DNA of 64,000 nt from a virus, in IMG/VR virus record IMGVR_UViG_3300044716_000068; one strand, written 5' to 3'. The notes below the pieces were generated by a model. It worked only from the letters and a program-made list of their open reading frames with translations. It searched no databases and was not told where the DNA came from. Every line of letters starts with the position of its first letter. The first letter of the stretch is position 1. Shown here in pieces: positions 658 to 16,983 of the stretch. A program made the translations under genes and the position numbers.

Positions 658-1533
658 TTAAGATTTTAAAGATGCAATAACTTGATCTACGTTAAATATT
701 TCTGTTTCATTGTTATATGGAAACTCTAATAGGTTTCCAGAGATGTCAAACTTCTGCAAGTATGCATTACGTAATTCAGGTTTCTTAGTGAATGGATTAC
801 ATACAATGTTATCATGTACATGATGTCCAAACACTACAGGTTTGTTACACACCCAAAGGACTGTAGAAGGTTTATTCATAGCAGCAGCTGCGTGATGGCC
901 AAAACTATCCATAAACAATCTCTTACTACTAAGTTCTATAAGAACAGCCAAAGCTCTGAAGTTGTCTGTAACAGGAGTGGTGAAGTCATAACCAATTTGA
1001 TCTTCTCTTCTTATGTGTACAATGTTATATTCATTTTTAAACTCCTCAATAACAGGACCTATAACACATGTAGGAATGTCTCTAGCCCATGAGTATTTCA
1101 ACTCTTGTCCTGGAGCACCACCATTTGTTTGTAATAATAAAATAGGTTTATCAGACGTAAACTTCTGACCAAAGAATTTACGTTCTCTATCTGTAAGATA
1201 GAGCTTAGGTATACTACTCTCAGGAGCGTCAATGCCAAACATCTTTGTCCATGTGAGACTCAAATGTTCATTCTGCATAAGATGTTCTGTCTGTATATAT
1301 GGATCATGTCCAAACACTTTAAACTCTTTACCCTCTATAAAATCTTCATAGAAGTATTGTGTCATACCAAAAGAAAATGAGCGATACACAAAGGGGTTGT
1401 TTATAAACACCTCTGGGTAACCGCTCATTACAATTAATTGACTATCAGGATATTGTGTACGAATTGCTTCACATACAGATGTGGCAAGTATACACTTACC
1501 TATACCACCATTGATTTGAAAAATGATATTCAT
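658..1533 (-). CDS. glycosyltransferase family 9-like (heptosyltransferase-like)
   Basis: 291 aa. The N-terminal NGGIGKCILATSVCEAIRTQYPDSQLIVMSGYPEVFINNPFV parallels the GT9 LGDxxxxTPxxxALRxxYPxAxIxxL...P.VD motif. The C-terminal MDSFGHHAAAAMNKPSTVLW parallels the GT9 NDSGPMHLAAALGTPTVALFG motif. The gene is 1 nt upstream of the sulfotransferase start. Confidence 0.65.
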   Translation of the reverse strand: MNIIFQINGGIGKCILATSVCEAIRTQYPDSQLIVMSGYPEVFINNPFVYRSFSFGMTQYFYEDFIEGKEFKVFGHDPYIQTEHLMQNEHLSLTWTKMFGIDAPESSIPKLYLTDRERKFFGQKFTSDKPILLLQTNGGAPGQELKYSWARDIPTCVIGPVIEEFKNEYNIVHIRREDQIGYDFTTPVTDNFRALAVLIELSSKRLFMDSFGHHAAAAMNKPSTVLWVCNKPVVFGHHVHDNIVCNPFTKKPELRNAYLQKFDISGNLLEFPYNNETEIFNVDQVIASLKS

Positions 1534-1591: not shown

Positions 1592-1972
1592 TTATTTTGC
1601 TGTAGTGGTAGTAGTGGTAGTTGTAGCAGGAGCACTAGTTGTGCTAGTGGTAGTTGTAGTTGTTGAATCTACAAACACTGCTGCAGCTAATGCGTCTAAT
1701 AAAGCTTGATCAAGATTAGCAGCTTCCACTCTAAATGATTGTGCATCTGGGCTATTAGGTAACCAGTCACTAAATAAACCATTGAAGTTGTTAATAGCAT
1801 GATAGGTCTTTGGACCTGTGTAGCCTACTGGCTTACCTGCCCATACGTTGTCTATCACTGCTTGTGCTTCTACTTGTACATCTGCAATAGGTGCCTGTAC
1901 GTTTTGTGTGTCAGAAATTACCTGCACTGTACCAAAACCAAAAATGTGGATTGTATTCCATGCGTTTGCCAT
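1592..1972 (-). CDS. small hypothetical protein with C-terminal poly-Thr/Ser tail
   Basis: 126 aa ending ...DSTTTTTTSTTSAPATTTTTTTTAK. It lies between the mega-fibre and the GT9 gene, with no recognisable domain. Confidence 0.45.
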   Translation of the reverse strand: MANAWNTIHIFGFGTVQVISDTQNVQAPIADVQVEAQAVIDNVWAGKPVGYTGPKTYHAINNFNGLFSDWLPNSPDAQSFRVEAANLDQALLDALAAAVFVDSTTTTTTSTTSAPATTTTTTTTAK

Positions 1973-1992: not shown

Positions 1993-4900
1993 TTAAATTA
2001 AATTATTGTTTTTCAAAATATTTTTTATCATTTTTATTTCATCCTTCAGATTATCATTCTCAGCTTTAAGTTCTTTGAAAGCGTTTACATAAGAAGCATA
2101 TATGGCATCCTTCTCAAATTGTAGGATTGGACTACCACCTTGTTCAACTATCACCTCAAGACCATTCTCATCCACTCTAGATAGTGGGTTTGTTTCCACT
2201 ACACAAGACATTACTTGTTGTACTTCCTGTGCTATGAAACCATATTTCTTATGGCATGATGTATCACCATTCCAGCAATAGCTTACAGGTCTTAATTTAA
2301 CAATATCATCTAGACCAAAGCAAGTATCTTGAATAGTATTCTTTCTTCTACAGTCAGAGATACCACCACCCCATTGACATAAGTTATTTACAAATGTGTA
2401 GTTGTTTGCCACACCTGGAATACAAGAACCAATAATGTGAGAGTTAGTTGTGCTATTACTACAGTTGTATGTACCACCTAAAATTGTTGACCAAGGAGAG
2501 AAACAGTTTACACAATTGCAATAACCACCAACTATAATTGAACAATCAGAACCTACAAAGTTAGTAGAACCACCTCCTGCAACTGAATGTGCTCCAAATG
2601 CATTATTAACAAATCCACCTCCTGCTACTGAATAATTACCATTTCCACCATTACCATATCCTCCACTCACTGTTGAACCAACACCACTTCCAATATTTGC
2701 ATAACCACCACCTATTGATGTGCATGCACCTGAGCCAACGTTACCATCACCCCCTGCCACTGTAGCACAAGCTCCTACAACATTATTACCTCTACCACCT
2801 CCAATTGTAGAAAAAACTCCTGATACAATATTACCACAACCACCACCAATTGCTGAATGAAGTCCTGATGCACAGTTACTTGTTCCTCCACCAACAAATG
2901 AACGACCACCTGTTGCTCTATTTACATAGCCACCTGAAACTGTAGAATAAGCTCCTGATGAACTATTATTGTAACCTCCTCCAACAAAAGCTCTTGGGCT
3001 TGTGGCACAGTTATCACTACCTCCTACTGTTGTAGACCAAACACCTGATGAAATGTTTGCTTGACCACCTCCAACAAATGAACAAGCTCCTGTAGCTGTG
3101 TTTGATATACCACCTCCTACTGTTGAGCGATAAGCTGATGCTGTATTAGAACTACCTCCTCCAACAACACTTGAATAACTACTTGATATATTAGAATTAC
3201 CTCCTCCAATAAAAGCAAAATAACAAGATGAAGTATTATTACTACCGCCTACTACAGAACTTCTATAGAAATTAGCAGTATTTGTGTAACCTCCTCCTAC
3301 AAATGACCAACCTCCTGATGCAACGTTATATCTTCCACTAAATGTTCCTGAACAACCTCCTGATGCAGTGTTTTGTAATGCACCACCTACAACAGAATGT
3401 CCTGATGATGCTATATTTAATTGTCCACCACTAACAGTAGCGTGTCCTACTGATGCTGTATTAGCGTTACCTCCTCCTATTGTAGCACAGTTTCCTGATG
3501 CATTGTTACCACATCCACCTGCCACTACACTTGCTGAAGCTGAAACTGTATTCCCCAATCCACCACCTATAGTTGCGTATGAGCCATAAGCACTACTTAC
3601 TGTATTTGACCTACCACCTCCTATTGTTGCATCTGTAGCTTGTATTAAGTTAGAATAACCACCTGAAATAGTAGAACTATTTTGACAAGTTCTATTATTA
3701 TATCCACCACCTGTTGTTGAATATGCTCCTGTAGCTACGTTACTTGAACCTCCTCCAACAACAGAACGATATCCTGATGATGTATTACTTGCTCCGCCAC
3801 TTACTACTGAAGCGTTTCCTGATGCTATATTATTTCCACCTGCACCAATAAAAGCACATCCTCCTGATGCTGAATTACTTATTCCACCTGCAACTGTTGT
3901 ATAATTTGAAGAAGAAGTATTTATTTTACCTCCTCCTACTGTTGAGCCTGAGTTTGTTGAAGCATTATTTCTACCACCACTCACTGTAGAATAATAAGAA
4001 GAGGCTGTGCCACCTGTACCACCTGCAATTGTTATACCATAAGCACCATTTATTAAGTTAGCACTCCCACCACCAATAACTGAATAAACTCCTAAATTAT
4101 TTCCTGTTCCACATATACAGTTAGAATTACCACCACCTATAAATCCAAATGAACCTATCACAACTTTATTAAGATTACCTCCTGCAACTGTAGAACAATT
4201 TGCAGAAGATAAATTAGATGCACCACCTCCAACATTAGATTCATTTCCTGAAGCTGTGTTAAAACTACCTCCACCTACTCTTGCATATCCTGCTGTTGCA
4301 GTATTACCTATACCACCTCCAATACTTGAATATACTGCATTAGCTGTATTATTTAATCCTCCTAATACTGATGCCCAATCTGCTATTGCTCTACTATTAT
4401 GACCACCAACCGCAGTTGAACGAGTACCTGTTGCACAGTTAAAAACACCCCCTCCAACAAAAGAATGAACTCCTGTTGACTGATTACCTTCTCCACCTAC
4501 AACAATTGAATAATTATTACTTGCAGTGTGAGCACATCCCCCACCAATAAAAGAACAATTACCTGAAGCTATATTACCTTGACCACCACCTAATGTAGAA
4601 CGAGTACCTGAAGCTGTGTTACTTAACCCTCCTCCTATATGTGAATTAGTTCCTGAAGCTGTATTTGTTCTACCACCTCCCACAGAACTATCAGTACCTG
4701 AAGCTGAACTATTAAATCCTCCTGCTACAACAGACATATAACCACTTGCAGAGTTAGCTGCACCACCACCAATAAATGTATAAGTATTACTTGTAGCATT
4801 TTGATTACCACCTGCTATTGTTGAACTTGTACAGTTAGCTGTATTTCCTGAACCGCCTCCAACAATAGAACAAGCACCTGTAGCCCTATTCTGAAGCCCT

Positions 4901-7900
4901 CCTCCTATTGTAGATAATAGACCTGCTGCATAGAAAGTAGTTGGTGCCACAGAAAAATATCCTGCTATATTCCAAGTACCACCTGATGTATTATTACCAA
5001 CCCCACCTGCAATTGTTGAACCTGAACTTGCATTAGCAGCAGAACACATCCAATTACAAATACCACCACCTATTGTTCCATTAGATGCAAGCATATAGTT
5101 TCTATAACCTCCACTAATTGTTCCTGCATAACTACTTGTAGCAATTGAATTTATATAACCACCACCTACTGTTGAATAGTTATGAGATGCTGTATTAGTA
5201 TATCCTCCTCCAACTGTTGAATACACTGCTGTAGTACAGTTTCCTTGACCACCTCCAATAAAGGAACAAGCTCCTGATGCAATGTTTGCTCTACCACCAC
5301 CTACAAAAGAGTGAACTGCTGATGCTTGATTTGATTCCCCACCTGATACTGTTGAGTGTGAAAATGTAGCTACATTATATTTACCACCTGATACTGTTGA
5401 CCAAGTTGCTGATGCAGAATTACCATAACCTCCTGATACCGTAGCATATGAATTTGTTGCACCATTTGATAGACCACCTGCTACAACAGAATCATATCCT
5501 GAAGCAGTGTTTGATATACCTGCACCTACAAATGCTTGAGAACCTGATGCTGTATTTGAATTACCACCTAAAACAGCTGCGTTTGTACCTGATGCTGCAT
5601 TTGTAGTACCACCGCCAACAGTAGAACAAGCTCCTGAAGCTGTGTTTGAAATACCTCCTGAAATAGTAGTTCCTCCATTGTTAGCAGTGTGACTAAAACC
5701 ACCTGCAATTACAGAACAGTTACCTGATGCTGTGTTTAAACATCCACCTCCTGCAGAAGAAAATGTTCCTGTAGCTTTTACATATTGTCCACCAACTACA
5801 CTACTATGACTTCCTGTTGCACAGTTAAAAAGACCTCCTCCTACAAATGCTCTTGTATTTACTGCTTGGTTTAATTCTCCTCCTACCACTACACTATAAC
5901 CACTACCTGAAACATTCGCACAACCTCCTCCTACAAATGCACAATTACCATTAGCAGTGTTTGCTCTACCTCCTGATACTGTTGAATGAGCTGCTGAAGC
6001 AAGATTGGCTTGACCTCCTCCTACTGTAGAAAAACCACCACTTGATGTATTACTAAATCCACCTGCTATTGTTGAATAGCACGCAGATACTGTATTAATA
6101 TAACCACCTGCTATTGTAGCCAAGTAACCACTAGCTGAGTTTCCTCTACCACCACCTACTGTTGATTGTCCATTAGAAGATGTGTTACTAGCTCCCCCAC
6201 CTACTACTGAACAGTTTCCTGATGCAGTATTACCAAATCCTCCTCCTATAAAACCACGATAACCTGATGCTGTATTACTAGCTCCACCTGCAACTATAGA
6301 ATCTGCACCATTTGATACATTGCTTCTACCTCCTCCTATAAATGACCAAGTACCTGATGCTGTGTTAAGACAACCACCAACTATTGTAGCAAAAGTATTA
6401 GTAGCTCTATTTTGAAATCCTCCTCCTATAAAACTAAAATCACCTGCTGTGCATATTGTAGGGGCAACATTAAATCTTTGACCATTCCAAGTACCACCTG
6501 TTGTATTACCACCTACACCACCTGCTATTGTTACAGCACAAACTTTTGCACCACAAATATAGTTTGAACTACCCCCACCAATAGCTGCAAACCCATTACC
6601 AAATGCAGTAGATACACTACAAATAAAATTTTGATAGCCTCCTGATATTGTAGAATAACTTGCAGAGTTAGTATTAAAATACCCACTCAATATAGATGCA
6701 TAAGGTTTAGGGGCACTATTACCAAATCCACCACCAATTATTGATAAGTCACCTGATGCTATATTGCATCCGCCTCCTAAAACAACAGAACAAGCATTTG
6801 AGGCTGTGTTATTTGCACCACCTCCAACAATTGAATGTCCACCTGATGCTGTGTTTGAGTTTCCACTACCAATAAAAGAACGACTTCCTGACGCTATATT
6901 TCCTAAACCACCTCCTATTGTTCCTTGATAACCACTTGATGTATTTGCTCTACCACTTCCTACAAAAGAATATCCTGATGAAGCTGTATTACCACAACCT
7001 CCTGCTACTGCTGCTCTATAAGATGACGCTGTATTATTTTGACCTCCTCCTATAAATGAATGTGCACCACTAGCATTATTGCTTTGACCTCCACCAATAG
7101 CAGCACAAGCTCCTGAAGAACTATTTAATTTACCACTACCTATAAAGGAATGACTTCCTAATGAAACGTTATTACACCCACTAGCAATACCTGACATATC
7201 TCCTGTAGCACAGTTTTGCAATCCTGCACCAACAAAAGCTCTTGCATTTGTTGCAAGGTTTAATTCACCACCTGCTACAACTGAATATACACCACTAGCT
7301 GTATTTGCACATCCTGCTCCTGCAAAAGAACAAGCACCTGAAGATGTGTTAGCTCTACCTCCTGCAACACTTGCAAAAGCACCTGAAGCAACGTTATTAA
7401 AACCACCACCTATAGATGAGTAGTTACCTGAAGCAGTTCCATTATAACCACCTGCTACAACAGACGCATTACCTGTTGCTTTGTTTACATTACCACCACC
7501 TACAGTAGATTGATTAGCTATAGCACAGTTTTTATATCCACCTGAAGCAGTTGAATGTTCTCCTGCTGCTCTGTTTTGGAAACCACCTCCTATGAAGCTA
7601 TATTGACCTGCAACACATTTAGTTGGAGCCACTGTAAAATCACAAGCTGCTAAAGACCAAGTACCACTTGTAGTGTTGTTACCAATACCACCTGCTATGG
7701 TAGCACCAAGAACTAAACAAGATGATGTAGGGCTGCAAATTATATTACAAAGTCCTGCTCCTACAAATGAATAAATACCACCTGCATAGTTTACACCACC
7801 ACCAACTATTGTTGATTCTATGGCTGATGCTACGTTTGCATATCCTCCACCTATAAACGAATAACATCCTGATACAGTATGACCTCTACCGCCACCAAGG

Positions 7901-10900
7901 AATGACATACAGTTGCTCACTGTATTAGAAAATCCACCTACCGCTGAAGAATATCTTGAAGATGCAGTGTTACCATATCCACTTCCTATGAATGAACTAG
8001 TCGCTGTAACTGTATTCCTATCTCCACCTGCTATTGTTGCAAAGTTTCCACAAGCTACGTTTGTGCATCCACCTCCTACAGCAGCATATACTGCTGAAGC
8101 AACATTACCTTGACCTCCACCTATAAAACTACAAGCTCCTGATGCTGTGTTTGATATACCTCCTGCAACTGTTGAGTTTGCTCCTGAAGCACAGTTACTT
8201 GTTCCTCCTCCTATAGTGGAACGATTACCTGATGCTCTATTTATGTAACCACCTGATATTGTAGAATATGTATTTGAAGCACTATTATTATAACCTCCAC
8301 CTACAAACGCTCTTGGACTTATAGCACAGTTATCACTACCTCCTACAACTGCAGACCAAGCACCTGTTGCAGTATTTGCTTGACCACCTCCTACTGTTGA
8401 ACAGTTACCTGATGCAGTGTTACCTTGACCACCTCCAATAAATGACATATTTGCTGAAGCTGAATTACCACTACCCCCTCCAATAAAAGAATTTGAATTT
8501 TGTGTTGTATTAGAAAGACCTCCTGCTATAGCAGAATATGTACCCACTGAAGCATTAGCTGAACCACTTAAAGAACCACTATATGCTCCTGAAGAAGTAT
8601 TTGTTACACCACATCTTACTGAAGAACACAATCCTGCTCCAAGCACAATAACAGCACTAGAACCAACATTTATACCTGAGCTTCCTGAACTACCACTTGT
8701 ACCTGACGTACCACTGGTGCCAGAAGTTCCACTTGTTCCTGAGCTACCACTGGTTCCTGTTGTACCACTAGACCCACTAGAGCCTGTTGTACCAGAGGTT
8801 CCTGTTGTACCAGACGTACCACTGGTAGCTGATGTACCACTAGAGCCTGAAGTACCTGTGGTACCTGACGTACCACCTGTACCATTGGTTCCACTTGTAC
8901 CACTTGTACCTGTAGTTCCAGCTGTACCTGAGGTGCCATTAGATCCATTAAGACCTGATGTTCCTGAGGTACCTGTAGAACCTGAGGTTCCTGATGTGCC
9001 ATTGACACCACTACTGCCTGAGGAACCAGATGTTCCTGAAGATCCAGAAGTACCTGTGGTTCCAGAGGTTCCACTTGTACCACCTGTTCCATTAGTGCCA
9101 GACGTGCCACTAGAACCTGCTGAGCCACTAGAGCCAGAAGTTCCTGTTGTGCCACTTGTTCCACTTGTTGCAGACGTACCACTAGATCCACTTGTACCTG
9201 TAGTACCACTAGTTCCAGAAGAGCCAGTCGTACCACTAGTACCACTTGTTCCTCCTGTTCCATTAGTTCCACTTGTACCTGATGTTCCTGTGGTACCAGA
9301 TGTACCATTTATTCCTGAAGATCCTGAAGATCCTGATGTTCCTGTTGTTCCTGAAGTACCTGAGGTTCCTCCAGATCCATTGGTACCTGACGTACCACTA
9401 GTTCCTGTAGTTCCACTTGTTCCTGTTGTACCGCTACTACCACTGCTGCCAGAAGTGCCAGAAGTACCTGAAGAACCATCACCTCCTGATGCACCATCAA
9501 GATTTACTATCCATGATGTATAAGTACCACTACCTACTGTTCTAGTAGGTGCTGCGAATGATAAAGATCCTGTTGCTGGGTTATATGAAATTACCTCACA
9601 CTCTTGGAAGTTGTTTGCATCATAAACCACAATGATTGATTGGGCCACTGTATAAGCCAATCCTAATCCTACAATGATTGTCCCAGCATTGCCTAATGTA
9701 AAAGTAGAAGATGATGTTGTTGCATATCTATCTCCTTGTAATCCTGAGGTACCACTCGTACCACTTGTCCCAGTTGTTCCTGATGTACCAGCTGTACCAC
9801 TAGAGCCTGCACTACCACTAGAACCACTTGTTCCTGTTGTTCCACTTGTTCCAGAAGTTCCTGTAGTTCCAGAAGTTCCTGTAGTACCACTAGATCCTGA
9901 GGTGCCTGTAGTGCCACTTGTTCCACTAGTACCTCCAGTACCATCTGTTGCAGATGTTCCTGAACTTCCTGATGTTCCAGAAGTACCACTAGTACCTGTA
10001 GTGCCTGATGTACCAGCACTACCACTTGTTCCACTAGTTCCACTTGTTCCTGTTGTACCTGAAGAGCCAGAAGACCCTGTTGTTCCTGAGGTGCCAGAAG
10101 TACCTCCTGTACCATCAGTTCCACTTGTTCCACTGGTTCCTGCAGTACCAGATGTTCCAGATGTTCCAGAAGTTCCACTTGTTCCTCCTGTACCATCAGT
10201 ACCTGAAGTTCCACTTGTACCACTTGAACCTGCTGTTCCACTAGATCCTGCTGTTCCACTAGTACCACTAGTACCAGTTGTACCAGAGGTTCCCCCTGTT
10301 CCATCTGTACCACTAGTTCCTGACGTTCCTGTTGTACCTGCTGTACCACTTGATCCTGAGGTTCCTGAACTGCCACTGGTTCCTGTAGTACCTGAAGTGC
10401 CACTGGTACCTGCTGTACCTGATGTACCTGTTGTACCAGCAGTTCCTGAACTGCCAGATGTACCAGAGCTACCTGAAGTTCCTGTGGTTCCACTTGTACC
10501 AGATGTGCCATCTGTACCTGAAGTACCTGATGTAGCACTTGTACCTGATGAACCTGAGCTTCCAGAAGTACCTGTTGTACCACTTGTGCCAGTTGTACCA
10601 CTAGTCCCTGATGTACCATCAGTACCACTTGTTGCAGAAGTACCATCTGTTCCACTTGTACCAGATGTACCAGTAGTTCCAGAAGTGCCAGAGGTTCCTG
10701 AAGTACCATCAATACCTGAAGTACCAGAGGTACCACCTGTAGCTGTGAAGTTTGCAATAGTACCATCACCTCGTATATATTGAGCTGCTGATCCTGTTGC
10801 TACAACGTTTATAGTTCCTGAAGAAGTTATAGGGGGTGTTGTAATGCTGAATGCTGGAGGCATGGCAAGTTGTACACTTGTCACTGTTCCTACAGACCAA

Positions 10901-11721
10901 CTTCTATTTGCTGATAAGTTTTGTGTTAAACCATTGATGCTCAACGTTCTAGTTGTAGGCACTGGTGTATATCCTAATGCAGATATAATATCTCCTTGTG
11001 TAACAGGAGTGGCAGACGTCACAAGACCTTTGCCATTCACAGCCACCTTTAAAAAGGTGTTGCTTCCATAGACATTAGGATTGACTGTCTGTAATGTAAG
11101 AGTTGTAGGAGAACCTGTCATACCAGTTCCTGTTACATCACCAACAATAATGATGACACCAGAAGGAACAGCAATGTTTACAGGAGTGATGTTAGTCACT
11201 AATCCTTTTGTGTTCACTGTTACTACTGGAACCTGTGTAGTGGAACCATATGTTCCTGGGTTAGGATTAACACTAGCCAATGTAAGGACAGCAGAGCCTG
11301 GGCCACTAGCTGTACCATCTCCTGTTAGTGCTGTGATATAAGGACCTGATGGTTGGTATGATGTATTATCTAAGCTACCATCCCCTTTGACAAAGTCAGA
11401 AGAGGTTCCACCTGTTGTTATTAATGCTGCAGACTCAATTGAATCTGTAATCTTGAATGTATAGCCATTACTAAGAATGACTGTGTTCTGGGTTAAGCTA
11501 CCGCCTAGCTTCACTGGTTGACCAGGAGCTGACTGTATAATTCCATTTTGGAATATATACCCAAGACCAGCATCTCCAAACTTTGCGTCTATTTTTTGTA
11601 GAGCTGTCTGAAGATTATCATTAGTGTTGATGCCAGTGTATATTAAATTCTCACCTTCATAGAATACGCAGGTGGCATTTAGTATGACTGGACATGGTTC
11701 TGCTGAACAAGATACATCCAT
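1993..11721 (-). CDS. giant tail fibre (3242 aa): N-terminal adaptor, Ig-like modules, two collagen-like blocks, ~130 x 15-residue beta-roll-like repeats, C-terminal S74 intramolecular chaperone
   Basis: N-terminal domain YTGINTNDNLQTALQKIDAKF is shared with the 87-aa and 394-aa proteins. Two ~65-aa repeated modules (GTYGSTTQVPVVTVNTKGLVTNITPV / NVYGSNTFLKVAVNGKGLVTSATPV) are Ig-like. Long Gly-X-Y runs (GTSGTSGTDGTSG...) follow. A long array of [FST][IV]GGGxxNxASGxxS repeats comes next. The C-terminus SDCRRKNTIQDTCFGLDDIVKLRPVSYCW...YGFIAQEV matches the Peptidase_S74 / endosialidase chaperone domain. Confidence 0.9.
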   Translation of the reverse strand: MDVSCSAEPCPVILNATCVFYEGENLIYTGINTNDNLQTALQKIDAKFGDAGLGYIFQNGIIQSAPGQPVKLGGSLTQNTVILSNGYTFKITDSIESAALITTGGTSSDFVKGDGSLDNTSYQPSGPYITALTGDGTASGPGSAVLTLASVNPNPGTYGSTTQVPVVTVNTKGLVTNITPVNIAVPSGVIIIVGDVTGTGMTGSPTTLTLQTVNPNVYGSNTFLKVAVNGKGLVTSATPVTQGDIISALGYTPVPTTRTLSINGLTQNLSANRSWSVGTVTSVQLAMPPAFSITTPPITSSGTINVVATGSAAQYIRGDGTIANFTATGGTSGTSGIDGTSGTSGTSGTTGTSGTSGTDGTSATSGTDGTSGTSGTTGTSGTTGTSGSSGSSGTSATSGTSGTDGTSGTSGTTGTSGSSGTSGSSGTAGTTGTSGTAGTSGTSGTTGTSGSSGTSGSSGTAGTTGTSGTSGTDGTGGTSGTTGTSGTSGTAGSSGTAGSSGTSGTSGTDGTGGTSGTSGTSGTSGTAGTSGTSGTDGTGGTSGTSGTTGSSGSSGTTGTSGTSGTSGSAGTSGTTGTSGTSGTSGSSGTSATDGTGGTSGTSGTTGTSGSSGTTGTSGTTGTSGTSGTTGTSGSSGSAGSSGTAGTSGTTGTSGTSGTSGLQGDRYATTSSSTFTLGNAGTIIVGLGLAYTVAQSIIVVYDANNFQECEVISYNPATGSLSFAAPTRTVGSGTYTSWIVNLDGASGGDGSSGTSGTSGSSGSSGTTGTSGTTGTSGTSGTNGSGGTSGTSGTTGTSGSSGSSGINGTSGTTGTSGTSGTNGTGGTSGTSGTTGSSGTSGTTGTSGSSGTSATSGTSGTTGTSGSSGSAGSSGTSGTNGTGGTSGTSGTTGTSGSSGTSGSSGSSGVNGTSGTSGSTGTSGTSGLNGSNGTSGTAGTTGTSGTSGTNGTGGTSGTTGTSGSSGTSATSGTSGTTGTSGTTGSSGSSGTTGTSGSSGTSGTSGTSGTSGTSGSSGSSGINVGSSAVIVLGAGLCSSVRCGVTNTSSGAYSGSLSGSANASVGTYSAIAGGLSNTTQNSNSFIGGGSGNSASANMSFIGGGQGNTASGNCSTVGGGQANTATGAWSAVVGGSDNCAISPRAFVGGGYNNSASNTYSTISGGYINRASGNRSTIGGGTSNCASGANSTVAGGISNTASGACSFIGGGQGNVASAVYAAVGGGCTNVACGNFATIAGGDRNTVTATSSFIGSGYGNTASSRYSSAVGGFSNTVSNCMSFLGGGRGHTVSGCYSFIGGGYANVASAIESTIVGGGVNYAGGIYSFVGAGLCNIICSPTSSCLVLGATIAGGIGNNTTSGTWSLAACDFTVAPTKCVAGQYSFIGGGFQNRAAGEHSTASGGYKNCAIANQSTVGGGNVNKATGNASVVAGGYNGTASGNYSSIGGGFNNVASGAFASVAGGRANTSSGACSFAGAGCANTASGVYSVVAGGELNLATNARAFVGAGLQNCATGDMSGIASGCNNVSLGSHSFIGSGKLNSSSGACAAIGGGQSNNASGAHSFIGGGQNNTASSYRAAVAGGCGNTASSGYSFVGSGRANTSSGYQGTIGGGLGNIASGSRSFIGSGNSNTASGGHSIVGGGANNTASNACSVVLGGGCNIASGDLSIIGGGFGNSAPKPYASILSGYFNTNSASYSTISGGYQNFICSVSTAFGNGFAAIGGGSSNYICGAKVCAVTIAGGVGGNTTGGTWNGQRFNVAPTICTAGDFSFIGGGFQNRATNTFATIVGGCLNTASGTWSFIGGGRSNVSNGADSIVAGGASNTASGYRGFIGGGFGNTASGNCSVVGGGASNTSSNGQSTVGGGRGNSASGYLATIAGGYINTVSACYSTIAGGFSNTSSGGFSTVGGGQANLASAAHSTVSGGRANTANGNCAFVGGGCANVSGSGYSVVVGGELNQAVNTRAFVGGGLFNCATGSHSSVVGGQYVKATGTFSSAGGGCLNTASGNCSVIAGGFSHTANNGGTTISGGISNTASGACSTVGGGTTNAASGTNAAVLGGNSNTASGSQAFVGAGISNTASGYDSVVAGGLSNGATNSYATVSGGYGNSASATWSTVSGGKYNVATFSHSTVSGGESNQASAVHSFVGGGRANIASGACSFIGGGQGNCTTAVYSTVGGGYTNTASHNYSTVGGGYINSIATSSYAGTISGGYRNYMLASNGTIGGGICNWMCSAANASSGSTIAGGVGNNTSGGTWNIAGYFSVAPTTFYAAGLLSTIGGGLQNRATGACSIVGGGSGNTANCTSSTIAGGNQNATSNTYTFIGGGAANSASGYMSVVAGGFNSSASGTDSSVGGGRTNTASGTNSHIGGGLSNTASGTRSTLGGGQGNIASGNCSFIGGGCAHTASNNYSIVVGGEGNQSTGVHSFVGGGVFNCATGTRSTAVGGHNSRAIADWASVLGGLNNTANAVYSSIGGGIGNTATAGYARVGGGSFNTASGNESNVGGGASNLSSANCSTVAGGNLNKVVIGSFGFIGGGNSNCICGTGNNLGVYSVIGGGSANLINGAYGITIAGGTGGTASSYYSTVSGGRNNASTNSGSTVGGGKINTSSSNYTTVAGGISNSASGGCAFIGAGGNNIASGNASVVSGGASNTSSGYRSVVGGGSSNVATGAYSTTGGGYNNRTCQNSSTISGGYSNLIQATDATIGGGRSNTVSSAYGSYATIGGGLGNTVSASASVVAGGCGNNASGNCATIGGGNANTASVGHATVSGGQLNIASSGHSVVGGALQNTASGGCSGTFSGRYNVASGGWSFVGGGYTNTANFYRSSVVGGSNNTSSCYFAFIGGGNSNISSSYSSVVGGGSSNTASAYRSTVGGGISNTATGACSFVGGGQANISSGVWSTTVGGSDNCATSPRAFVGGGYNNSSSGAYSTVSGGYVNRATGGRSFVGGGTSNCASGLHSAIGGGCGNIVSGVFSTIGGGRGNNVVGACATVAGGDGNVGSGACTSIGGGYANIGSGVGSTVSGGYGNGGNGNYSVAGGGFVNNAFGAHSVAGGGSTNFVGSDCSIIVGGYCNCVNCFSPWSTILGGTYNCSNSTTNSHIIGSCIPGVANNYTFVNNLCQWGGGISDCRRKNTIQDTCFGLDDIVKLRPVSYCWNGDTSCHKKYGFIAQEVQQVMSCVVETNPLSRVDENGLEVIVEQGGSPILQFEKDAIYASYVNAFKELKAENDNLKDEIKMIKNILKNNNLI
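1996..2358 (-). other. Peptidase S74 / intramolecular chaperone autoproteolytic domain of the mega-fibre (predicted self-cleavage before SDCRRKN)
   Basis: SDxRxKxNI...L.PV.Y.W......YGFIAQEV matches the conserved signature of phage tail-spike/endosialidase C-terminal IMC domains. The domain is followed by a coiled-coil-like KELKAENDNLKDEIKMIKNILKNNNLI. Confidence 0.8.
2480..8690 (-). repeat. ~130 tandem 45-bp (15-codon) repeats encoding [FST][IV]GGGxxNxASGxxS beta-roll/YadA-head-like units, interrupted by three ~55-aa Cys/Trp modules
   Basis: GGG recurs every 15 residues throughout this part of the 3242-aa ORF. Three modules carrying the GGTW signature lie near nt 4975, 6490 and 7660, with consensus IAGG.GNNT.GGTW...VAPT.C.AG..SFIGGGFQNRA. 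Their exact extents were not delimited. Confidence 0.7.
8690..9480 (-). repeat. collagen-like Gly-X-Y block 2 of the fibre (9-bp periodic DNA repeats)
   Basis: GSSGTSGSSGSSGTTGTSGTTG... repeats. Plus-strand mirror ORFs (PEVPLVP...) in the ORF track come from the same periodicity. Confidence 0.75.
9705..10737 (-). repeat. collagen-like Gly-X-Y block 1 of the fibre
   Basis: About 345 residues of GTSGTSGTDGTSGTSGTTG... starting near aa 329. It is separated from block 2 by a ~90-aa globular insert (LQGDRYATTSSSTFTLGNAGTIIVGLGLAYTVAQSIIVVYDANNFQECEVISYNPATGSLSF). Confidence 0.75.
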
Positions 11722-11868: not shown

Positions 11869-14800
11869 TTATCTATTTTCTTTCTGTATAGTAACGTCAT
11901 ATTCTTTAGCAAAGTCAGCATCTAAAATAGCTAGGTATGTAACTAGTGATTTTGTGAAAGGGAACATCTTCATAGCGTTCTTTACAGGCTGTGCTTTCTT
12001 CCTTACATCTTCTGCTGTTGTTTCTGATTTCATATCAAGCCCTGTTGTTTCCATCCACACATGATCCATGAATCTACCAAAGTCTTTAATGATACCAGTT
12101 GCTGGGAATATACCTTGATCTAATAAGGATTGATAGTTAACTGGATTATAGAAGAACGAAAGCTCACCTACAAACTTATCTATCACTCTTGTTGTATATC
12201 TGTGGAAGTTCTTAGCTGCTTTGTCTTCGTCATCATCAGGTGCTATGAATCCTAGAGAGAACATCATTCCTATCAACGAACCTAAGATGGCTAATTCCTT
12301 AATCTGATTCTGTAAGTTGTTTCTTACCATATCAATGAACTGCTCCTTGGTCATGTATAATTCTTGACCTGTAGTTCTTTTATACTCCTGTCCATACTGT
12401 TCATACATCTCATTAAGCTTCTTGATACCTTCATCATTCATATTCATGATGTTGAGAAGATTGGTTTGCTTATCTTTAAATGAAGAACCAATTACAGCAG
12501 CTAGTAGACGAATACGTCCAATGTCATATTTCTCACCAATAGGTATTCCATCTTCTCCAATCTCTACAGAGAAGTCATCACTCACTCTTCTGAACTCAGA
12601 GAAACGAGTATCTGTTAATTTTGGAATCCAGTTCTTAAACAACATCATACTCTTGGTCCAGATAGACATAGACATCCTGTTGATGTCACCATCTGATAAG
12701 TTACCTGTTGCGTTTCTAGATATACGTCTAGTCAGTGTAGTGAGTCTTTGTATCTCTTCTCTATTGTTTAGATCCAAGCCAGGGATGACTAACTTACCAT
12801 CTTCTATCTTTCTAGTATTAGCAATAGACCTTGTCTTCTTTAGCTCTTCAATCTCTGCATCTATCTTAGATTTGCTTTCTGCAAACTTAGCAGCACTGTC
12901 ATATCTATCTTTATACTTACTATTTACAAACTCTCTGATACTAACTATTCTACCATTCTCCACCATCATGTTTTCAAGTAGGGTGAGGAATGTAGCTTTC
13001 TCTAATAGTTGTTCTGGTTTTCTCATAAAGACCATCAGAGTATCAGAAAGACTACCTCTAGTTAACTTACTCAAACCAGCTCTCTTAAATTCTTCATAAG
13101 AAAGATCATCTTTCAATGGCATGAATGTATTAACAAGTTCAATAAACGTTTCCTTATCTTCCTCATTAGCAAAGCTTTGTCCTATAAGTTTAGCTTCATT
13201 CTTTGCAAACTCTCTAGCCTTGAAGTAGTTTCCTGCTTGGGTAGCAATCTGAATATTACCACCAAACATGTTGGCAGCACCAGATATAAATTCAAATCCA
13301 AGTGTCTTTAACTGGAATGCTCTGTTAGCAGCATCCATTGTTTTAATCAATGATGTAGGTGTAGGATTTTCTTCAGGTGAGAAGATTTCTTTACCAGCCA
13401 CTTTGTTGATACCATTCTTAATAAAGTTTGTCACCTTATCCATGTTCAATGGTAAGTCTGCATCATCTATAGTGTATTTTTGATCATACAATAAAGATCT
13501 TAAAAACTCATCATATATCTTTGTATTCTCCTCATTACCAGGAAGTTCTTGCACATTACCATCCTTTCTAACTACATCACTGTATCTAGTGGTATTAAGA
13601 TGTCCCTTGAATGATTCAATAGTTCTTACTAAGTTTAACTGACCTTCCACCTCAGATAGATATTTGTATTTCTCTACTTGTTGGATGTATAGGATGAGGT
13701 TTTTAAATAAATCTTCACTCACCTCAGAGTAGTCATTAACTCCTGTATCAGTTTGTGTGAAGTCATATGTATAGTATTTAGGAATACCATTCTGTAATTC
13801 TCCTGTGATTTCATTGATGCTACCATAACCAGTGTCATCAGCTCTAGCTTGAAGACTGTTATAGAAGTTGTTCATAACAGACAACTTATTATCCCATATA
13901 AGCTGTTCAGCCATGCTCTTTCTAATGAATGGTAAGAAGTTCTTAGCCACCATATTGTTGATGTAACCAATATCCTTTGCCTTCTCATTATACTTAGTAA
14001 TGAAATTGTACAACTCAAGTAGGTCAGAGTCTTTTTGAATCTCTAAATATTCATCAGATAACCATTCACTCTTAGGGTGTCTTTTAACAACATAGTTATT
14101 AAAGCCATTAAAGTCTTCTCTATCTATATCCCATAAGCGTTGTGTCTCAAGTATATATTTTTCTCTTTGTTCATTTTGTTCTTCTGCTGAACCAGGATAA
14201 GAACTCTTGTTGATTCTAGCAATCTGGTTTTCTAATAAAGGAGCAGCTTCTTTTTTATAAGCTTCTACATCAATGTTATTTAATAACCATTCTTTATCTC
14301 CACCTTCACTAGCTTTTTTATCTATTTGCTCAAAGAAATCTTTATTATATTTATAGATTAGTTTGTTTACTAATCCACCTTCTGTAGTCTTTTGATAAAG
14401 CTTTTGTATAAGTTTTCTTGTATCACCACCTCTAGCAACAAGCTTATCTCTAAGACTCATTAAGACTTCCACTTCTTTAAATGCATCAGCTGAAGCATTG
14501 TTCTTTGCTGTAGATGTAAGCTTATATAACACTTGTAATGCACGTGAAGGTAGCTCTGATACACCTCTAAACCTAGCAGCCAATCCTTTGATTACTGCTT
14601 CAGCTTTGGTCAATCCTGCTACAAGGTTTCTTTGTCCTATGTGTTTATCAGCAAACTCTTCAGATGCTTTAATAATTTGCTTGATAGAAAGTCTGATAGA
14701 TTTAGATTCTGAATCTAAGTCTTCTAATATCTCCTTTCTAAGGTCTATGTTTTCTTTCTCTGCTTCTGTAGTAGCTCCCTCTTCCATGTCTGTTGTATAG

Positions 14801-16983
14801 ATTAAATAACCTATATCATCACCAATGCTTGAAAACACCTCAGAGAATCTGATGTAATTATTCATGTCATCAGCAAAGTCAGACAACTCTTCATTAGTAG
14901 AGTCTGTATCTCTAGCAGGTCTATCCTTATAGATAGTGTTATAATCATTTAAGATTCTATCACCATCTCTTCTCATCACCTGGATTACATCTACAAGAGG
15001 TTGTAAGTTTCCAGTTCCTTGTACTAAACGAATAGCTCTTCTCAGAGTGTTCATACGTTCAATCTTGAATATACGCTCTCCCTCATCACCTACTTGCTCT
15101 TTAGCATATTCACGCATTAATGCATTCAACTTACCTAATACACCATCAAGTGCTTCACTACCAGTGGTTTCTGATTCCTCAGATAGAGGAATAAGTTTCA
15201 TCTCTGTCAATGGATCTATCTTAGATTTATCTACAGAGCCTATTGCTATGCCATCTAGTTTGAATCCTTTCTTAGCATCCATCTTATCCACTCTTCCAAA
15301 CTCTAAAGAGATGGGAATAGCACGTAACATACCAAATTCTTTGATACCATAGTTTTCACGTAGGATGTTTTTGTATGTACCAATCTGAATATTGAAAGCT
15401 CCTTGCTTAAACCAAGCAACATCATTGCCTGCAATATGCATAAACTTCCAATCCAAGATGTGTGTTTTACCTTCTGGCTCTACAGCTAAGAAGTCAATTG
15501 TTCCAGCCTCTTTGTTTTTCTTATCATATATAACAACCTCAGAGAATATAAGTGTATCCTTTGGGAATGTTTCAATTAATTCTGTATAATAGTTTTCTAG
15601 AGTTTCATACATAGCTCTACTCTCTAGATTATACTTAGTAGGTCTAGGCTCAGGATACTCACGTTTAGTTCCATCCTCATTGTAGTATCTACTATGTATT
15701 TCTTCTAAGTCTCTGTGTCCAGCTACTCCTAGAGTTCTTTTAAGTTCATTGAACTTCTTCTCTTGTTCACTAAACACCTTATTGCCAAACCTTTCTTTAT
15801 ACCAAGCTTTGACCCTATCAGTTACCCTCTTTGTTATCTTTGTCCAAGTGCCATCATCATTCTTAATCTCATAGCCATTGTTAGCTTCTTCAGAATCTAA
15901 TAACAAAGGGTCAGCATTCTTTTCAGCATATTCAACCTTTCTAATATTGTTAGGATCTTGTGTCTTAGCTATGTTTTCCTGTATTACTTTTTGTTGAGGA
16001 CTAATGATTTGATAGTAAGGACCTTGTCCATTAATAATTGGAATACCTTCTATCTTACCACCAAGAATTTCACTAGCTGCTTCTCTAAATATATCTATAC
16101 TAGCTTTACTGTATAGTCCATGAATAAAGTCTTTAATCATGCTCCACCACTTCTGAACTAATGATATGTTATCTTCATTAGCTAACTCAGGGAAGTATTC
16201 ATTACCAGTACCTTCATTTACAATCACTTCAGCAATTAACTTATCTACAGCTTCCTTCTTAATCTTGCGAATGTCAGGCTTGCCATTAGGAAGTTGGTAA
16301 TCTTTATTGTCCTTGTATAATTTGTATGTTTGATTATAGATGGCAAACTTATCTATTCTAGATATCATTTGCGTAACTAGTTGAGGATTAGTCTGTTCTA
16401 TCATAGCTGTAGCTATGTGAACAAGCTCTTCTGTTAATGCTACATCTTCTTGACCCTCAGCAATAGCAATAACACCTCTAGCCAAGTCAGCTACACCATT
16501 AATGTTTGTAGTGTCTAAGCCAGTATTTTTAGCATATGTTGCTAAGTCTTCAATAGATATACCCATCTTAGTAGCAGCTTCCTTAACCTTTTCTATAATA
16601 GCAGGGGTAGCCACTGTGCTTGGGAATCCAGTTACTTGTAAGAAGTTAGTTGGTTCATCATTAGTATAATTATTATCCTCTCCTTCTGTTGTTGGTTTGT
16701 TTTCTTCTACAGCCAACTCACTATTGTAATAATCTAAATACTTCTGAGCAAGCTCATTAGATGGACTAATGAAGTAGGTTGTTCTATCTCCATAGCTTGG
16801 AGTGAGTAACATTTCTCCAAAGGCATCATTAACCTTCTTAGCAGAAAGCTCAGCTAATGTATTATCAGTTATTCTTAATGAATCTCTTTCTCCATGAATA
16901 TAGGTAAATCCACCATTATCCATAGCAAGGTCTCTTGCTGTGTCTGTAATATCAAACTTAATATCTAATATACATTTGCTCAT
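11869..16983 (-). CDS. large hypothetical virion protein (1704 aa), possibly an internal/ejected cargo protein
   Basis: Long uninterrupted ORF with a TAATG-type 1-nt overlap with the upstream 3905-aa gene. No catalytic motif was recognised. Its position among giant proteins at the distal end of the structural block suggests a virion cargo role. Confidence 0.5.
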   Translation of the reverse strand: MSKCILDIKFDITDTARDLAMDNGGFTYIHGERDSLRITDNTLAELSAKKVNDAFGEMLLTPSYGDRTTYFISPSNELAQKYLDYYNSELAVEENKPTTEGEDNNYTNDEPTNFLQVTGFPSTVATPAIIEKVKEAATKMGISIEDLATYAKNTGLDTTNINGVADLARGVIAIAEGQEDVALTEELVHIATAMIEQTNPQLVTQMISRIDKFAIYNQTYKLYKDNKDYQLPNGKPDIRKIKKEAVDKLIAEVIVNEGTGNEYFPELANEDNISLVQKWWSMIKDFIHGLYSKASIDIFREAASEILGGKIEGIPIINGQGPYYQIISPQQKVIQENIAKTQDPNNIRKVEYAEKNADPLLLDSEEANNGYEIKNDDGTWTKITKRVTDRVKAWYKERFGNKVFSEQEKKFNELKRTLGVAGHRDLEEIHSRYYNEDGTKREYPEPRPTKYNLESRAMYETLENYYTELIETFPKDTLIFSEVVIYDKKNKEAGTIDFLAVEPEGKTHILDWKFMHIAGNDVAWFKQGAFNIQIGTYKNILRENYGIKEFGMLRAIPISLEFGRVDKMDAKKGFKLDGIAIGSVDKSKIDPLTEMKLIPLSEESETTGSEALDGVLGKLNALMREYAKEQVGDEGERIFKIERMNTLRRAIRLVQGTGNLQPLVDVIQVMRRDGDRILNDYNTIYKDRPARDTDSTNEELSDFADDMNNYIRFSEVFSSIGDDIGYLIYTTDMEEGATTEAEKENIDLRKEILEDLDSESKSIRLSIKQIIKASEEFADKHIGQRNLVAGLTKAEAVIKGLAARFRGVSELPSRALQVLYKLTSTAKNNASADAFKEVEVLMSLRDKLVARGGDTRKLIQKLYQKTTEGGLVNKLIYKYNKDFFEQIDKKASEGGDKEWLLNNIDVEAYKKEAAPLLENQIARINKSSYPGSAEEQNEQREKYILETQRLWDIDREDFNGFNNYVVKRHPKSEWLSDEYLEIQKDSDLLELYNFITKYNEKAKDIGYINNMVAKNFLPFIRKSMAEQLIWDNKLSVMNNFYNSLQARADDTGYGSINEITGELQNGIPKYYTYDFTQTDTGVNDYSEVSEDLFKNLILYIQQVEKYKYLSEVEGQLNLVRTIESFKGHLNTTRYSDVVRKDGNVQELPGNEENTKIYDEFLRSLLYDQKYTIDDADLPLNMDKVTNFIKNGINKVAGKEIFSPEENPTPTSLIKTMDAANRAFQLKTLGFEFISGAANMFGGNIQIATQAGNYFKAREFAKNEAKLIGQSFANEEDKETFIELVNTFMPLKDDLSYEEFKRAGLSKLTRGSLSDTLMVFMRKPEQLLEKATFLTLLENMMVENGRIVSIREFVNSKYKDRYDSAAKFAESKSKIDAEIEELKKTRSIANTRKIEDGKLVIPGLDLNNREEIQRLTTLTRRISRNATGNLSDGDINRMSMSIWTKSMMLFKNWIPKLTDTRFSEFRRVSDDFSVEIGEDGIPIGEKYDIGRIRLLAAVIGSSFKDKQTNLLNIMNMNDEGIKKLNEMYEQYGQEYKRTTGQELYMTKEQFIDMVRNNLQNQIKELAILGSLIGMMFSLGFIAPDDDEDKAAKNFHRYTTRVIDKFVGELSFFYNPVNYQSLLDQGIFPATGIIKDFGRFMDHVWMETTGLDMKSETTAEDVRKKAQPVKNAMKMFPFTKSLVTYLAILDADFAKEYDVTIQKENR

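Follow-up and report, generated by a model that had tools for sequence, protein, structure and literature searches.

The window analysed here, a 64,000-nucleotide stretch of viral DNA (IMG/VR virus record IMGVR_UViG_3300044716_000068), carries on its minus strand a single ATG-initiated open reading frame (1993..11721) encoding a 3,242-aa fibre protein of a crAss-like phage, in agreement with the single ORF of this size given in the first-pass annotation. Across 60 homologues, Met1 and the ~30 residues at the N-terminus hardly vary, indicating that the annotated start is right. An exact-sequence look-up of the whole protein returned no identical protein on record. From the N-terminus to the C-terminus, the following features were delimited:

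1993..11721, minus strand: complete fibre ORF (ORF call), 3,242 aa plus stop codon (1993-1995)
10735..11721, minus strand: conserved N-terminal module, aa 1-329, with a presumed virion-attachment part followed by two hairpin units (homologue conservation)
9727..10734, minus strand: Gly-X-Y block 1, aa 330-665, 336 aa (Gly-X-Y periodicity, Pfam Collagen)
9496..9726, minus strand: non-collagenous 77-aa domain separating the Gly-X-Y blocks, aa 666-742 (read from the sequence)
8668..9495, minus strand: Gly-X-Y block 2, aa 743-1018, 276 aa (Gly-X-Y periodicity, Pfam Collagen)
2443..8622, minus strand: array of ~121-131 fifteen-residue units, aa 1034-3093, a UspA1-type left-handed parallel beta-roll (periodicity, PSSM/DP parse, fold)
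7597..7722, minus strand: conserved insertion 1 in the array, aa 1334-1375, ...TIAGGIGNNTTSGTW...FTVAPT...
6433..6606, minus strand: conserved insertion 2 in the array, aa 1706-1763, ...TIAGGVGGNTTGGTW...FNVAPT...
4912..5172, minus strand: irregular stretch and conserved insertion 3, aa 2184-2270, ...TIAGGVGNNTSGGTW...FSVAPT...
2359..2442, minus strand: beta-roll C-terminal cap and linker, aa 3094-3121, with the predicted mature C-terminus ...NNLCQWGGGI (model, UspA1 alignment)
1996..2358, minus strand: Peptidase_S74 intramolecular chaperone, aa 3122-3242, with Ser3122 and Lys3127

The fibre is encoded inside a crAss-like structural module. The portal protein aligns with crAss-like portals along 98% of its length at ~25% identity (E to 3e-52), the terminase and the major head protein match crAss-like PHROG families, and the gene order giant ORF, 1,704-aa ORF, fibre is kept in about 25 contigs. 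ORF126 was seen exclusively together with this type of fibre and is a possible assembly factor. The gene is highly repetitive, and a giant ORF of this kind might result from misassembly, through repeat-induced chimerism or expansion. We consider this extremely improbable. The 45-nt array units are merely 60-73% identical at the DNA level, the frame is unbroken over 9.7 kb, and the same architecture was found in three independent contigs of other samples (L011, L001 and L003, with 112, 109 and 93 units, respectively). Moreover, the gene is collinear with L011 at 99.1% identity over its initial 3,608 nt, which include both Gly-X-Y blocks.

The N-terminal module contains two "tail-fibre repeat" hairpin units of ~55 aa each (aa ~131-245). 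Searches of Pfam, NCBIfam and PDB sequences gave no match to the module; it has 263 database homologues, none of them named. The AF2 monomer model was poor (pLDDT 70.8, pTM 0.28), and Foldseek with this low-confidence model gave no match at E<1. An Ig-like domain had been suggested earlier; it was recovered neither by Pfam nor, with the low-confidence model of aa 1-329, by Foldseek. Judged by inspection alone, the N-terminus MDVSCSAEPCPVILNATCVFYEGEN has neither the basic n-region nor the hydrophobic h-region of a signal peptide. The module was present in 34 IMG/VR contigs at 55-100% identity, joined to differing distal parts. Receptor-binding fibres classically combine a constant N-terminus with unrelated distal parts in this way.

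The position of the fibre on the virion was considered in the light of phage crAss001, in which a trimeric head fibre, gp21, with its N-terminal 38 residues plugged into hexon pockets, exists alongside a trimeric tail fibre, gp22 (PMC10172136). Since crAss001 has both, "tail" is only a candidate label for the present fibre. A protein of the same architecture could instead be a capsid fibre or decoration protein, serving loose adherence to surfaces or mucus and not primary receptor recognition. The crAss001 precedent is compatible with such a role, and the N-terminal module matches neither gp21 nor gp22; a tblastn search of 50,697 phage records found no crassvirus match to aa 1-329. However, a place on the capsid appears rather unlikely: the PHROG matches of the fibre belong exclusively to tail or tail-fibre families, including collagen-like tail fibre families, aa 125-196 resemble repeats of annotated tail fibre proteins of Acinetobacter phages (E ~1e-4), and the exchange of distal modules on a constant N-terminus is typical of host-range determinants.

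The two collagen-like blocks predicted earlier at ~345 and ~260 residues were confirmed with slightly different lengths (336 and 276 aa), and Pfam Collagen matched the whole protein with an E-value of 4.1e-65. Both blocks together comprise 199 Gly-X-Y triplets, with a longest run of 64 consecutive triplets and five Gly->Ala breaks overall; block 1 is interrupted three times, each time by a single Gly->Ala change. Position X is Thr in 76% of triplets (Thr/Ser in 95%), and position Y is Ser in 66% (Ser/Thr in 81%). Proline, a stabilising imino acid, occurs in X or Y in none of the 199 triplets; the region holds 16 charged residues in 689 aa, and stabilising charge pairing was not found. The stability of a triple helix is therefore uncertain.

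The Pfam Collagen profile mostly rewards Gly periodicity. Taken with the lack of imino acids and the dominance of Thr/Ser, this leaves room for the Gly-Thr-Ser regions to be flexible, possibly O-glycosylated low-complexity linkers that form no triple helix, in a fibre much shorter and floppier than estimated below. We regard such linkers as somewhat unlikely, given that Gly recurs strictly at every third residue over long runs with few breaks, that Gly-Thr-Ser-rich blocks are shared with many relatives (up to 858 aa) and have the same lengths in L011, and that the trimeric modules on either side would keep three chains in register. If the Gly-X-Y blocks do form triple helices, the fibre would be roughly 250 nm long, with about 96 + 79 nm of collagen and about 60 nm of beta-roll; a length of hundreds of nm, as first proposed, is thus plausible by arithmetic.

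The 77-aa spacer between the blocks is also present in relative L027 and has no reliable database match. Matches to designed Kelch proteins were rejected as evidence of a Kelch-like domain, as they were sums of six weak repeats with per-domain E-values of 20-55. The idea that ORF291 is a glycosyltransferase that might act on the Thr/Ser-rich fibre was likewise unsupported by Pfam, NCBIfam and PDB searches.

The distal array (aa 1034-3093) showed a lag-15 identity of 0.364, compared with 0.120 +/- 0.007 in 1,000 shuffles (z = 36.6). The PSSM/DP parse yielded 121 units and about 10 weaker ones sitting in 15-aa gaps, while a simple motif count over the array gave 131. The unit consensus, [T/F]-[V/I]-G-G-G-x-x-N-T-A-S-G-x-[Y/C/R/H]-S, and the unit number agree with the ~130 copies of [FIV]GGGxxNxASGxxS first described. 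Gly occupies consensus positions 3-5 in 72, 110 and 119 of the 121 units, respectively.

Two different segments matched the UspA1 head in phmmer (E 3.6e-15 and 3.2e-05). The array has the YadA-like head fold, a left-handed parallel beta-roll, with a bacterial adhesin head as the closest solved structure. The pectate-lyase-like right-handed beta-helix of tailspikes, named at the outset as the outcome that would overturn an adhesin-type roll, was not matched. Cap strands are present in the model, where the linker (aa 3115-3119) has low pLDDT, and the cap aligns with the end of the UspA1 head. UspA1-type repeats are defined by a 15-residue layer with an extra conserved glycine, GGG (PMC9543794); the fibre has both, together with significant similarity to the UspA1 head. 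The proposed likeness to YadA/Hep_Hag heads therefore holds for the fold, but the repeat is the 15-residue UspA1 variant, which is rare among autotransporters (PMC9543794), and not the canonical 14-residue one. Likewise, Pfam YadA_head (PF05658) and YadA_stalk gave no match at E<=1 on the whole protein or at E<=10 on a 390-aa array segment. UspA1_rep (PF18792) was not reported for the fibre in Pfam scans of the whole protein and of segments, but does match the homologues P0048, P0021 and P0278. A tblastn search of GenBank phages with the C-terminal 302 aa and a 500-aa array segment returned no match, with the low-complexity filter possibly masking the query.

The C-terminal chaperone assigned in the first-pass annotation was corroborated by a Peptidase_S74 match at aa 3122-3175, scoring 32.3 bits in the whole protein and 37.8 bits in the C-terminal segment (cutoff 22), and by the S74 domain fold. 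The Ser-Lys dyad, S3122 and K3127, lies in an S-D-x-R-x-K motif; at the corresponding columns, conservation across 53 homologues is 90% or higher. The junction ...GGGI/SDCRRKN reads in the sequence as given earlier. Peptidase_S74 was the sole C-terminal Pfam match in scans of the whole protein and the C-terminal segment; no YadA_anchor beta-barrel was found there.

Comparison with L011 revealed the plasticity of the array. The two proteins are 100% identical over aa 1-1200; beyond this point they differ by indels, most of which add or remove a multiple of 15 aa, and by a patch at aa 2000-2750 of only 51-56% identity. Distal parts are exchanged as modules, and unit-number indels occur between near-identical phages.

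The first-pass annotation suggested that the array had been acquired from a bacterial adhesin. Shared ancestry of the fibre beta-roll and the adhesin head is supported, and the closest solved structure, as noted, is an adhesin head. Nevertheless, recent capture by a phage from a bacterial trimeric autotransporter adhesin is very unlikely, judging from the nearest relatives listed, which carry S74 but in no case a membrane anchor. Among the best 120 matches listed for a query of array plus C-terminus, precomputed Pfam assignments gave no YadA anchor, and most had Peptidase_S74; the anchor was also absent from all 19 relatives scanned. In addition, the array was matched by 15,438 cluster representatives, of which many are of fibre type or are surface proteins with a signal peptide, and both the rarity of the 15-residue form among autotransporters and the possibility that flow ran equally well from the fibre pool to UspA1 argue against capture. 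In the neighbourhood of the Zixibacteria homologue P0043, one weak terminase match was found and the other genes were cellular, a mixed picture for a prophage origin of such proteins.

Taken together, these data suggest that the gene probably encodes a homotrimeric virion fibre of great length in a divergent crAss-like podophage, with a tail fibre acting in host adhesion as the likeliest assignment. The N-terminal ~130 conserved residues would dock the trimer to the virion, and the Gly-X-Y blocks would serve as thin flexible tethers with a small knot domain between them. The distal rod would consist of ~130 layers of UspA1-type 15-residue left-handed beta-roll, one roll per chain, with the three rolls packed about the axis and punctuated by the three conserved insertions. 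S74 is predicted to trimerise first, templating folding in the C- to N-terminal direction, and then to cleave itself off before Ser3122 as a fragment of ~13.5 kDa by our estimate, leaving the cap exposed. Receptor contact may be made through the tip and/or the repeated solvent-facing positions x6, x7, x13 and x14 along the rod, while recombination in the array would reshuffle unit number and identity.

More tentatively, the 131-layer beta-roll may be a recombination-driven, evolvable adhesion rod, and S74-capped phage-type beta-rolls may be the pool behind the 15-residue head of UspA1. If so, 15-residue layers and multi-layer cassettes would be gained, lost and swapped between otherwise identical crAss-like phages, layer exchange would tune reach and a repeated lateral binding surface, and hence host range, and beta-roll flow would run from phage to bacterium and not the reverse. 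The beta-roll of adhesin heads, found in Moraxella, Yersinia and Burkholderia pathogens, is also a widespread block of phage-type fibres, in which a predicted self-cleaving chaperone holds the C-terminal place of the adhesin membrane anchor. In the open-access papers searched, no phage fibre was described as having a shaft formed by an autotransporter-type beta-roll. At least three relatives are labelled "trimeric autotransporter adhesin" by JGI despite an S74 domain and no membrane-anchor domain on record; such labels could be corrected. The fibre also provides a natural beta-roll that is about six to seven times as long as the largest solved one, with closely related length variants, for work on in-register roll folding, on the effect of length on crAss-like phage adsorption and on engineered rigid protein rods.

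Among known systems, the closest in fold is the UspA1 head of Moraxella catarrhalis (PDB 3PR7/3NTN; PF18792), which belongs to a protein with a signal peptide, a coiled-coil stalk that bears the head, and a C-terminal beta-barrel anchor. The UspA1 beta-roll spans residues 166-267 (PMC9543794), ~7 layers by our arithmetic, compared with ~130 in the fibre, where a collagen-like region replaces the coiled coil, anchor and signal peptide are absent and S74 forms the C-terminus. The heads of YadA (1P9H), BpaC (7O23), BoaA (3S6L), EibD (2XQH), AtaA (3WP8) and CbpF (9U93) differ in having 14-residue layers. The largest solved YadA-like head, BpaC 741-1054, is 89.5 A long (PMC9543794), whereas the fibre beta-roll is estimated at ~60 nm. 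The ryegrass ice-recrystallisation-inhibition protein (3ULT; LbR_Ice_bind) is a short eukaryotic protein; the Pfam score of the fibre for this family was below the cutoff of 30, and no evidence of ice binding was found.

Endosialidase, T5 pb1 and MyRF-type proteins share with the fibre the C-terminal place, S-D-x-R-x-K dyad and fold of the chaperone (Peptidase_S74, ICA domain). Characterised S74 chaperones template a triple beta-helix or other intertwined folds, whereas here S74 follows an autotransporter-head-type beta-roll.

The architectures joined in this ORF had been described as usually found in separate proteins. This did not hold, because beta-roll and S74 are paired in thousands of fibre-type proteins: metagenome and MAG "tail fiber domain-containing proteins" with the same beta-roll, cap and S74 cassette gave >5,600 matches. 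Because the matches listed for the array-plus-C-terminus query, like those for the N-terminal module, ran to at most about 1.75x the query length, their length distributions were set aside. The best match, P0001, is 52% identical over the final 391 aa, and P0241 and P0275 (2.5-2.7 kaa) also carry S74; many of the relatives with GGG repeats and S74 have signal peptides and resemble bacterial surface proteins. Collagen and the same beta-roll fold already occur together in viral "Collagen triple helix repeat" proteins of BFVD. Polinton-like-virus fibres of up to 3.9 kaa combine Gly-X-Y blocks with a C-terminal S74 (PMC12220804), and collagen-like phage and PLV fibres are, as here, large and modular; the present fibre differs from them in its proline-free (Gly-Thr-Ser)n and far longer beta-roll. 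The fibre is thus an extreme version of a modular phage fibre whose modules are individually common. Its distinctive feature is the length of the array, rightly called unusual at first reading: the 149 best database representatives had motif counts of at most 91, compared with 131 here, and none reached 60 aa of Gly-X-Y in all.

The fibre is encoded by a single ATG-initiated ORF of 3,242 aa on the minus strand (1993..11721). Across 60 homologues Met1 and the first ~30 residues hardly vary, so the start codon is correctly placed. The first-pass annotation, which described one giant ORF with collagen-like blocks, a ~130-unit array and a Peptidase_S74 (S74) chaperone domain, was accurate by ORF, periodicity and Pfam analysis, and the GGGI/SDCRRKN junction is present as it stated. 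The Ig-like domain it proposed was not detected by Pfam or fold search; the Pfam scan of the fibre returned nothing beyond Collagen (E 4.1e-65) and Peptidase_S74.

Features of the fibre
aa 330-665, minus strand: Gly-X-Y block 1 (336 aa), from glycine periodicity
77 aa, minus strand: non-collagenous domain separating the Gly-X-Y blocks, from sequence
aa 743-1018, minus strand: Gly-X-Y block 2 (276 aa), from glycine periodicity
aa 1034-3093 (window 2443-8622), minus strand: array of 15-residue units, from periodicity
window 7597-7722, 6433-6606 and 4912-5172, minus strand: conserved insertion, three copies within the array, from motif
aa 3122-3175, minus strand: Peptidase_S74, from Pfam

Together, the Gly-X-Y blocks comprise 199 triplets with five Gly-to-Ala breaks. 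Other ORFs overlap the fibre on both strands at 8.6-10.8 kb, inside the Gly-X-Y coding region, and we take them to be by-products of its 9-nt periodicity. At least 90% of homologues retain the Ser3122/Lys3127 dyad of S74. The N-terminal region, previously read as an adaptor, has a putative virion-attachment role, suggested by its conservation and position.

Within the array, identity at a lag of 15 residues was 0.364 versus 0.120 ± 0.007 in shuffled sequence (z = 36.6). Profile parsing yielded 121 units and about ten of lower score, compared with 131 from plain motif counting; the unit consensus is [T/F]-[V/I]-G-G-G-x-x-N-T-A-S-G-x-[Y/C/R/H]-S. When a 390-aa array segment was compared with all PDB sequences, it matched the head of UspA1, a trimeric autotransporter adhesin of Moraxella catarrhalis (3pr7, E 3.6e-15; 3ntn, E 1e-5), and weakly a ryegrass ice-binding beta-roll, with no further PDB match. 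The last array units, together with the cap, can be aligned to the final part of the UspA1 head. Scored against the phage-unit profile, UspA1 units reached 7.4-15.6 at spacings that are multiples of 15 residues. Units of the phage itself range from 6.1 to 20.9, with 1.4 as the 99.9th percentile of shuffled sequence. Left-handed parallel beta-rolls of trimeric autotransporters have 14-residue layers, the exception being UspA1, with its 'unusual 15-residue repeats' and extra conserved glycine (PMC9543794). The array is also rich in cysteine (68 Cys, 3.2%, mostly at unit positions 14, 9 and 6; window 2443-8622, minus strand), and inter-layer or inter-chain disulfides are possible.

A query of the array plus C-terminus matched more than 5,600 proteins, and almost all of the top ones carry Peptidase_S74; some matches also have Pfam UspA1_rep or LbR_Ice_bind, and one a weak YadA_head. 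NCBI labels them 'tail fiber domain-containing protein', and a few are 'trimeric autotransporter adhesin' at JGI. When 1,200 aa of the array were run exhaustively with HMMER against 1.84 billion cluster representatives, 15,438 matched at E<=1e-3, of which 1,378 reached E<=1e-30. An S74-like domain was found in 57 of the 149 best representatives (C-terminal in 54 of the 57), and a Gly-X-Y total of at least 60 aa in none of the 149. Many of the remaining best representatives have clear signal peptides and resemble bacterial surface proteins; no YadA anchor was found in the 13 scanned. Recent capture of the array from a bacterial adhesin, as first proposed, is unlikely, as the closest relatives listed are S74 fibres that lack an anchor. 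Separately, a Zixibacteria chromosome (CP070839.1, 2.56 Mb; gene 8001-9851) encodes a 616-aa beta-roll and S74 protein among mostly cellular genes, with a single weak terminase-like neighbour. Proteins with an S74-capped beta-roll may in some cases belong to bacterial surfaces and not to phages.

The highest motif counts in the best 149 representatives were 91, 86 and 83, versus 131 in the fibre, whose array is the longest found among these best 149 of 15,438 matches. Uncultured Caudovirales proteins in BFVD have the same fold, as do 'Collagen triple helix repeat' proteins from Marseillevirus and Pithovirus metagenomic bins and a 'YadA-like head' protein of a Klosneuvirus; polinton-like viruses are reported to have large collagen and S74 fibres of up to 3.9 kaa (PMC12220804). 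The combination of modules is thus not confined to this fibre; its novelty lies in the scale and the proline-free Gly-Thr-Ser collagen. No paper with an array-type beta-roll as a phage fibre shaft was found in the open-access literature searched.

Assembly collapse or expansion is unlikely, since DNA identity between the 45-nt units is only 60-73%. The insertion that breaks up the beta-roll in three places (...TIAGGxGxNTxGGTW...F[TNS]VAPT...AG..S) recurs, by its ...GGTW...F[TNS]VAPT... motif, in 7 of the 389 family members fetched (P0252, P0255, P0267, P0318, P0350, P0241 and P0247). The array begins with ~200 aa (aa 1034-1240) that share up to 67% identity with aa 2807-3010, at an offset of 1,773 aa (window 8004-8622 versus 2692-3303, minus strand) and far above the ~36% unit-to-unit background, which suggests growth by internal expansion between the two halves of a short ancestral array. 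DNA repeat family D6 lies within the same two intervals at 73% nucleotide identity.

Scanning IMG/VR with the N-terminal 329 aa identified 34 contigs encoding most of this module. Three of them, L011, L001 and L003, from three different samples, share the whole architecture (3,083, 2,959 and 2,631 aa; 112, 109 and 93 units); the fibre gene is real and independently reproduced. The window and L011 are collinear and 99.1% identical over the first 3,608 nt, including both Gly-X-Y blocks. Past aa 1200, most indels are multiples of 15 aa (15, 60, 75, 90), and some measure 10-16 or 63 aa; identity drops to just 51-56% in a patch spanning aa 2000-2750 and recovers to 81-87% at the C-terminus. By sequence comparison, gain or loss of units and exchange of cassettes concentrate in the array. 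Across the related contigs, the same N-terminal module (55-100% identity) carries very different distal parts, with Gly-X-Y blocks and S74 each present or absent, a pattern typical of receptor-binding fibres that keep one constant end for attachment to the virion. One such contig, IMGVR_UViG_3300005805_000058, has from position 10001 the same N-terminus in a fibre ORF of >3,659 aa that exceeds the fetched locus, with 783 aa of Gly-X-Y and zero 15-aa units; this phage clade thus commonly has giant fibres whose distal modules are of other kinds.

Judged from its gene content, the window is a structural module from a divergent crAss-like phage. The portal shares ~25% identity, over 98% of its length, with crAss-like portals (E to 3e-52), and the terminase and major head protein match the corresponding PHROGs.

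ORFs neighbouring the fibre
16983-28700, minus strand: 3,905-aa ORF upstream, no Pfam or PHROG match
11869-16983, minus strand: 1,704-aa ORF immediately upstream, no Pfam or PHROG match
1592-1972, minus strand: 126-aa ORF directly downstream, poly-Thr C-terminal tail, traced by tblastn
658-1533, minus strand: 291-aa ORF, conserved in L001, L003, L009, L011 and L018

The order of giant ORF, 1,704-aa ORF and fibre is kept in about 25 related IMG/VR contigs; the two upstream products might, from their position in a crAss-like genome, be ejected cargo or proteins of the virion polymerase type. In tblastn searches, the 126-aa ORF occurred only in L001, L003 and L011, the related contigs with a beta-roll-array fibre, and was absent from relatives whose distal modules differ; its product is a candidate accessory or assembly factor specific to this fibre. 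The N-terminus of the 291-aa ORF is reminiscent of GT9-type glycosyltransferases, an assignment unsupported by Pfam, NCBIfam and PDB sequence searches; if true, it would be of interest beside a Thr/Ser-rich fibre.

In the proposed mechanism, the N-terminus would dock the fibre to the virion. A collagen triple helix rises 0.286 nm per residue, and the Gly-X-Y blocks, if triple-helical, would form tethers of about 96 and 79 nm; whether (Gly-Thr-Ser)n makes a stable triple helix is uncertain. Scaled from BpaC 741-1054, the largest solved roll at 89.5 Å (PMC9543794), about 130 layers of ~0.47 nm would give a beta-roll of about 60 nm. The total would be roughly 250 nm, about three times the 88-nm crassvirus capsid (PMC10172136). 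The fibre may be a tail fibre or a head fibre; crAss001, a characterised crassvirus, has both kinds as trimers (PMC10172136). S74 would trimerise, template folding from the C-terminus and cut before Ser3122. Receptor contacts would probably be made by the exposed cap and/or the variable x positions along the roll.

In autotransporters, a C-terminal membrane anchor nucleates the trimer; by analogy, the S74 chaperone of the phage fibre would stand in the same logical position. Built as a UspA1-type beta-roll longer than in any of the matches examined, the shaft has an S74 cap and joins a collagen-like tether free of proline; the fibre of this crAss-like phage is an extreme form of the known modular phage fibre rather than a new kind of system.
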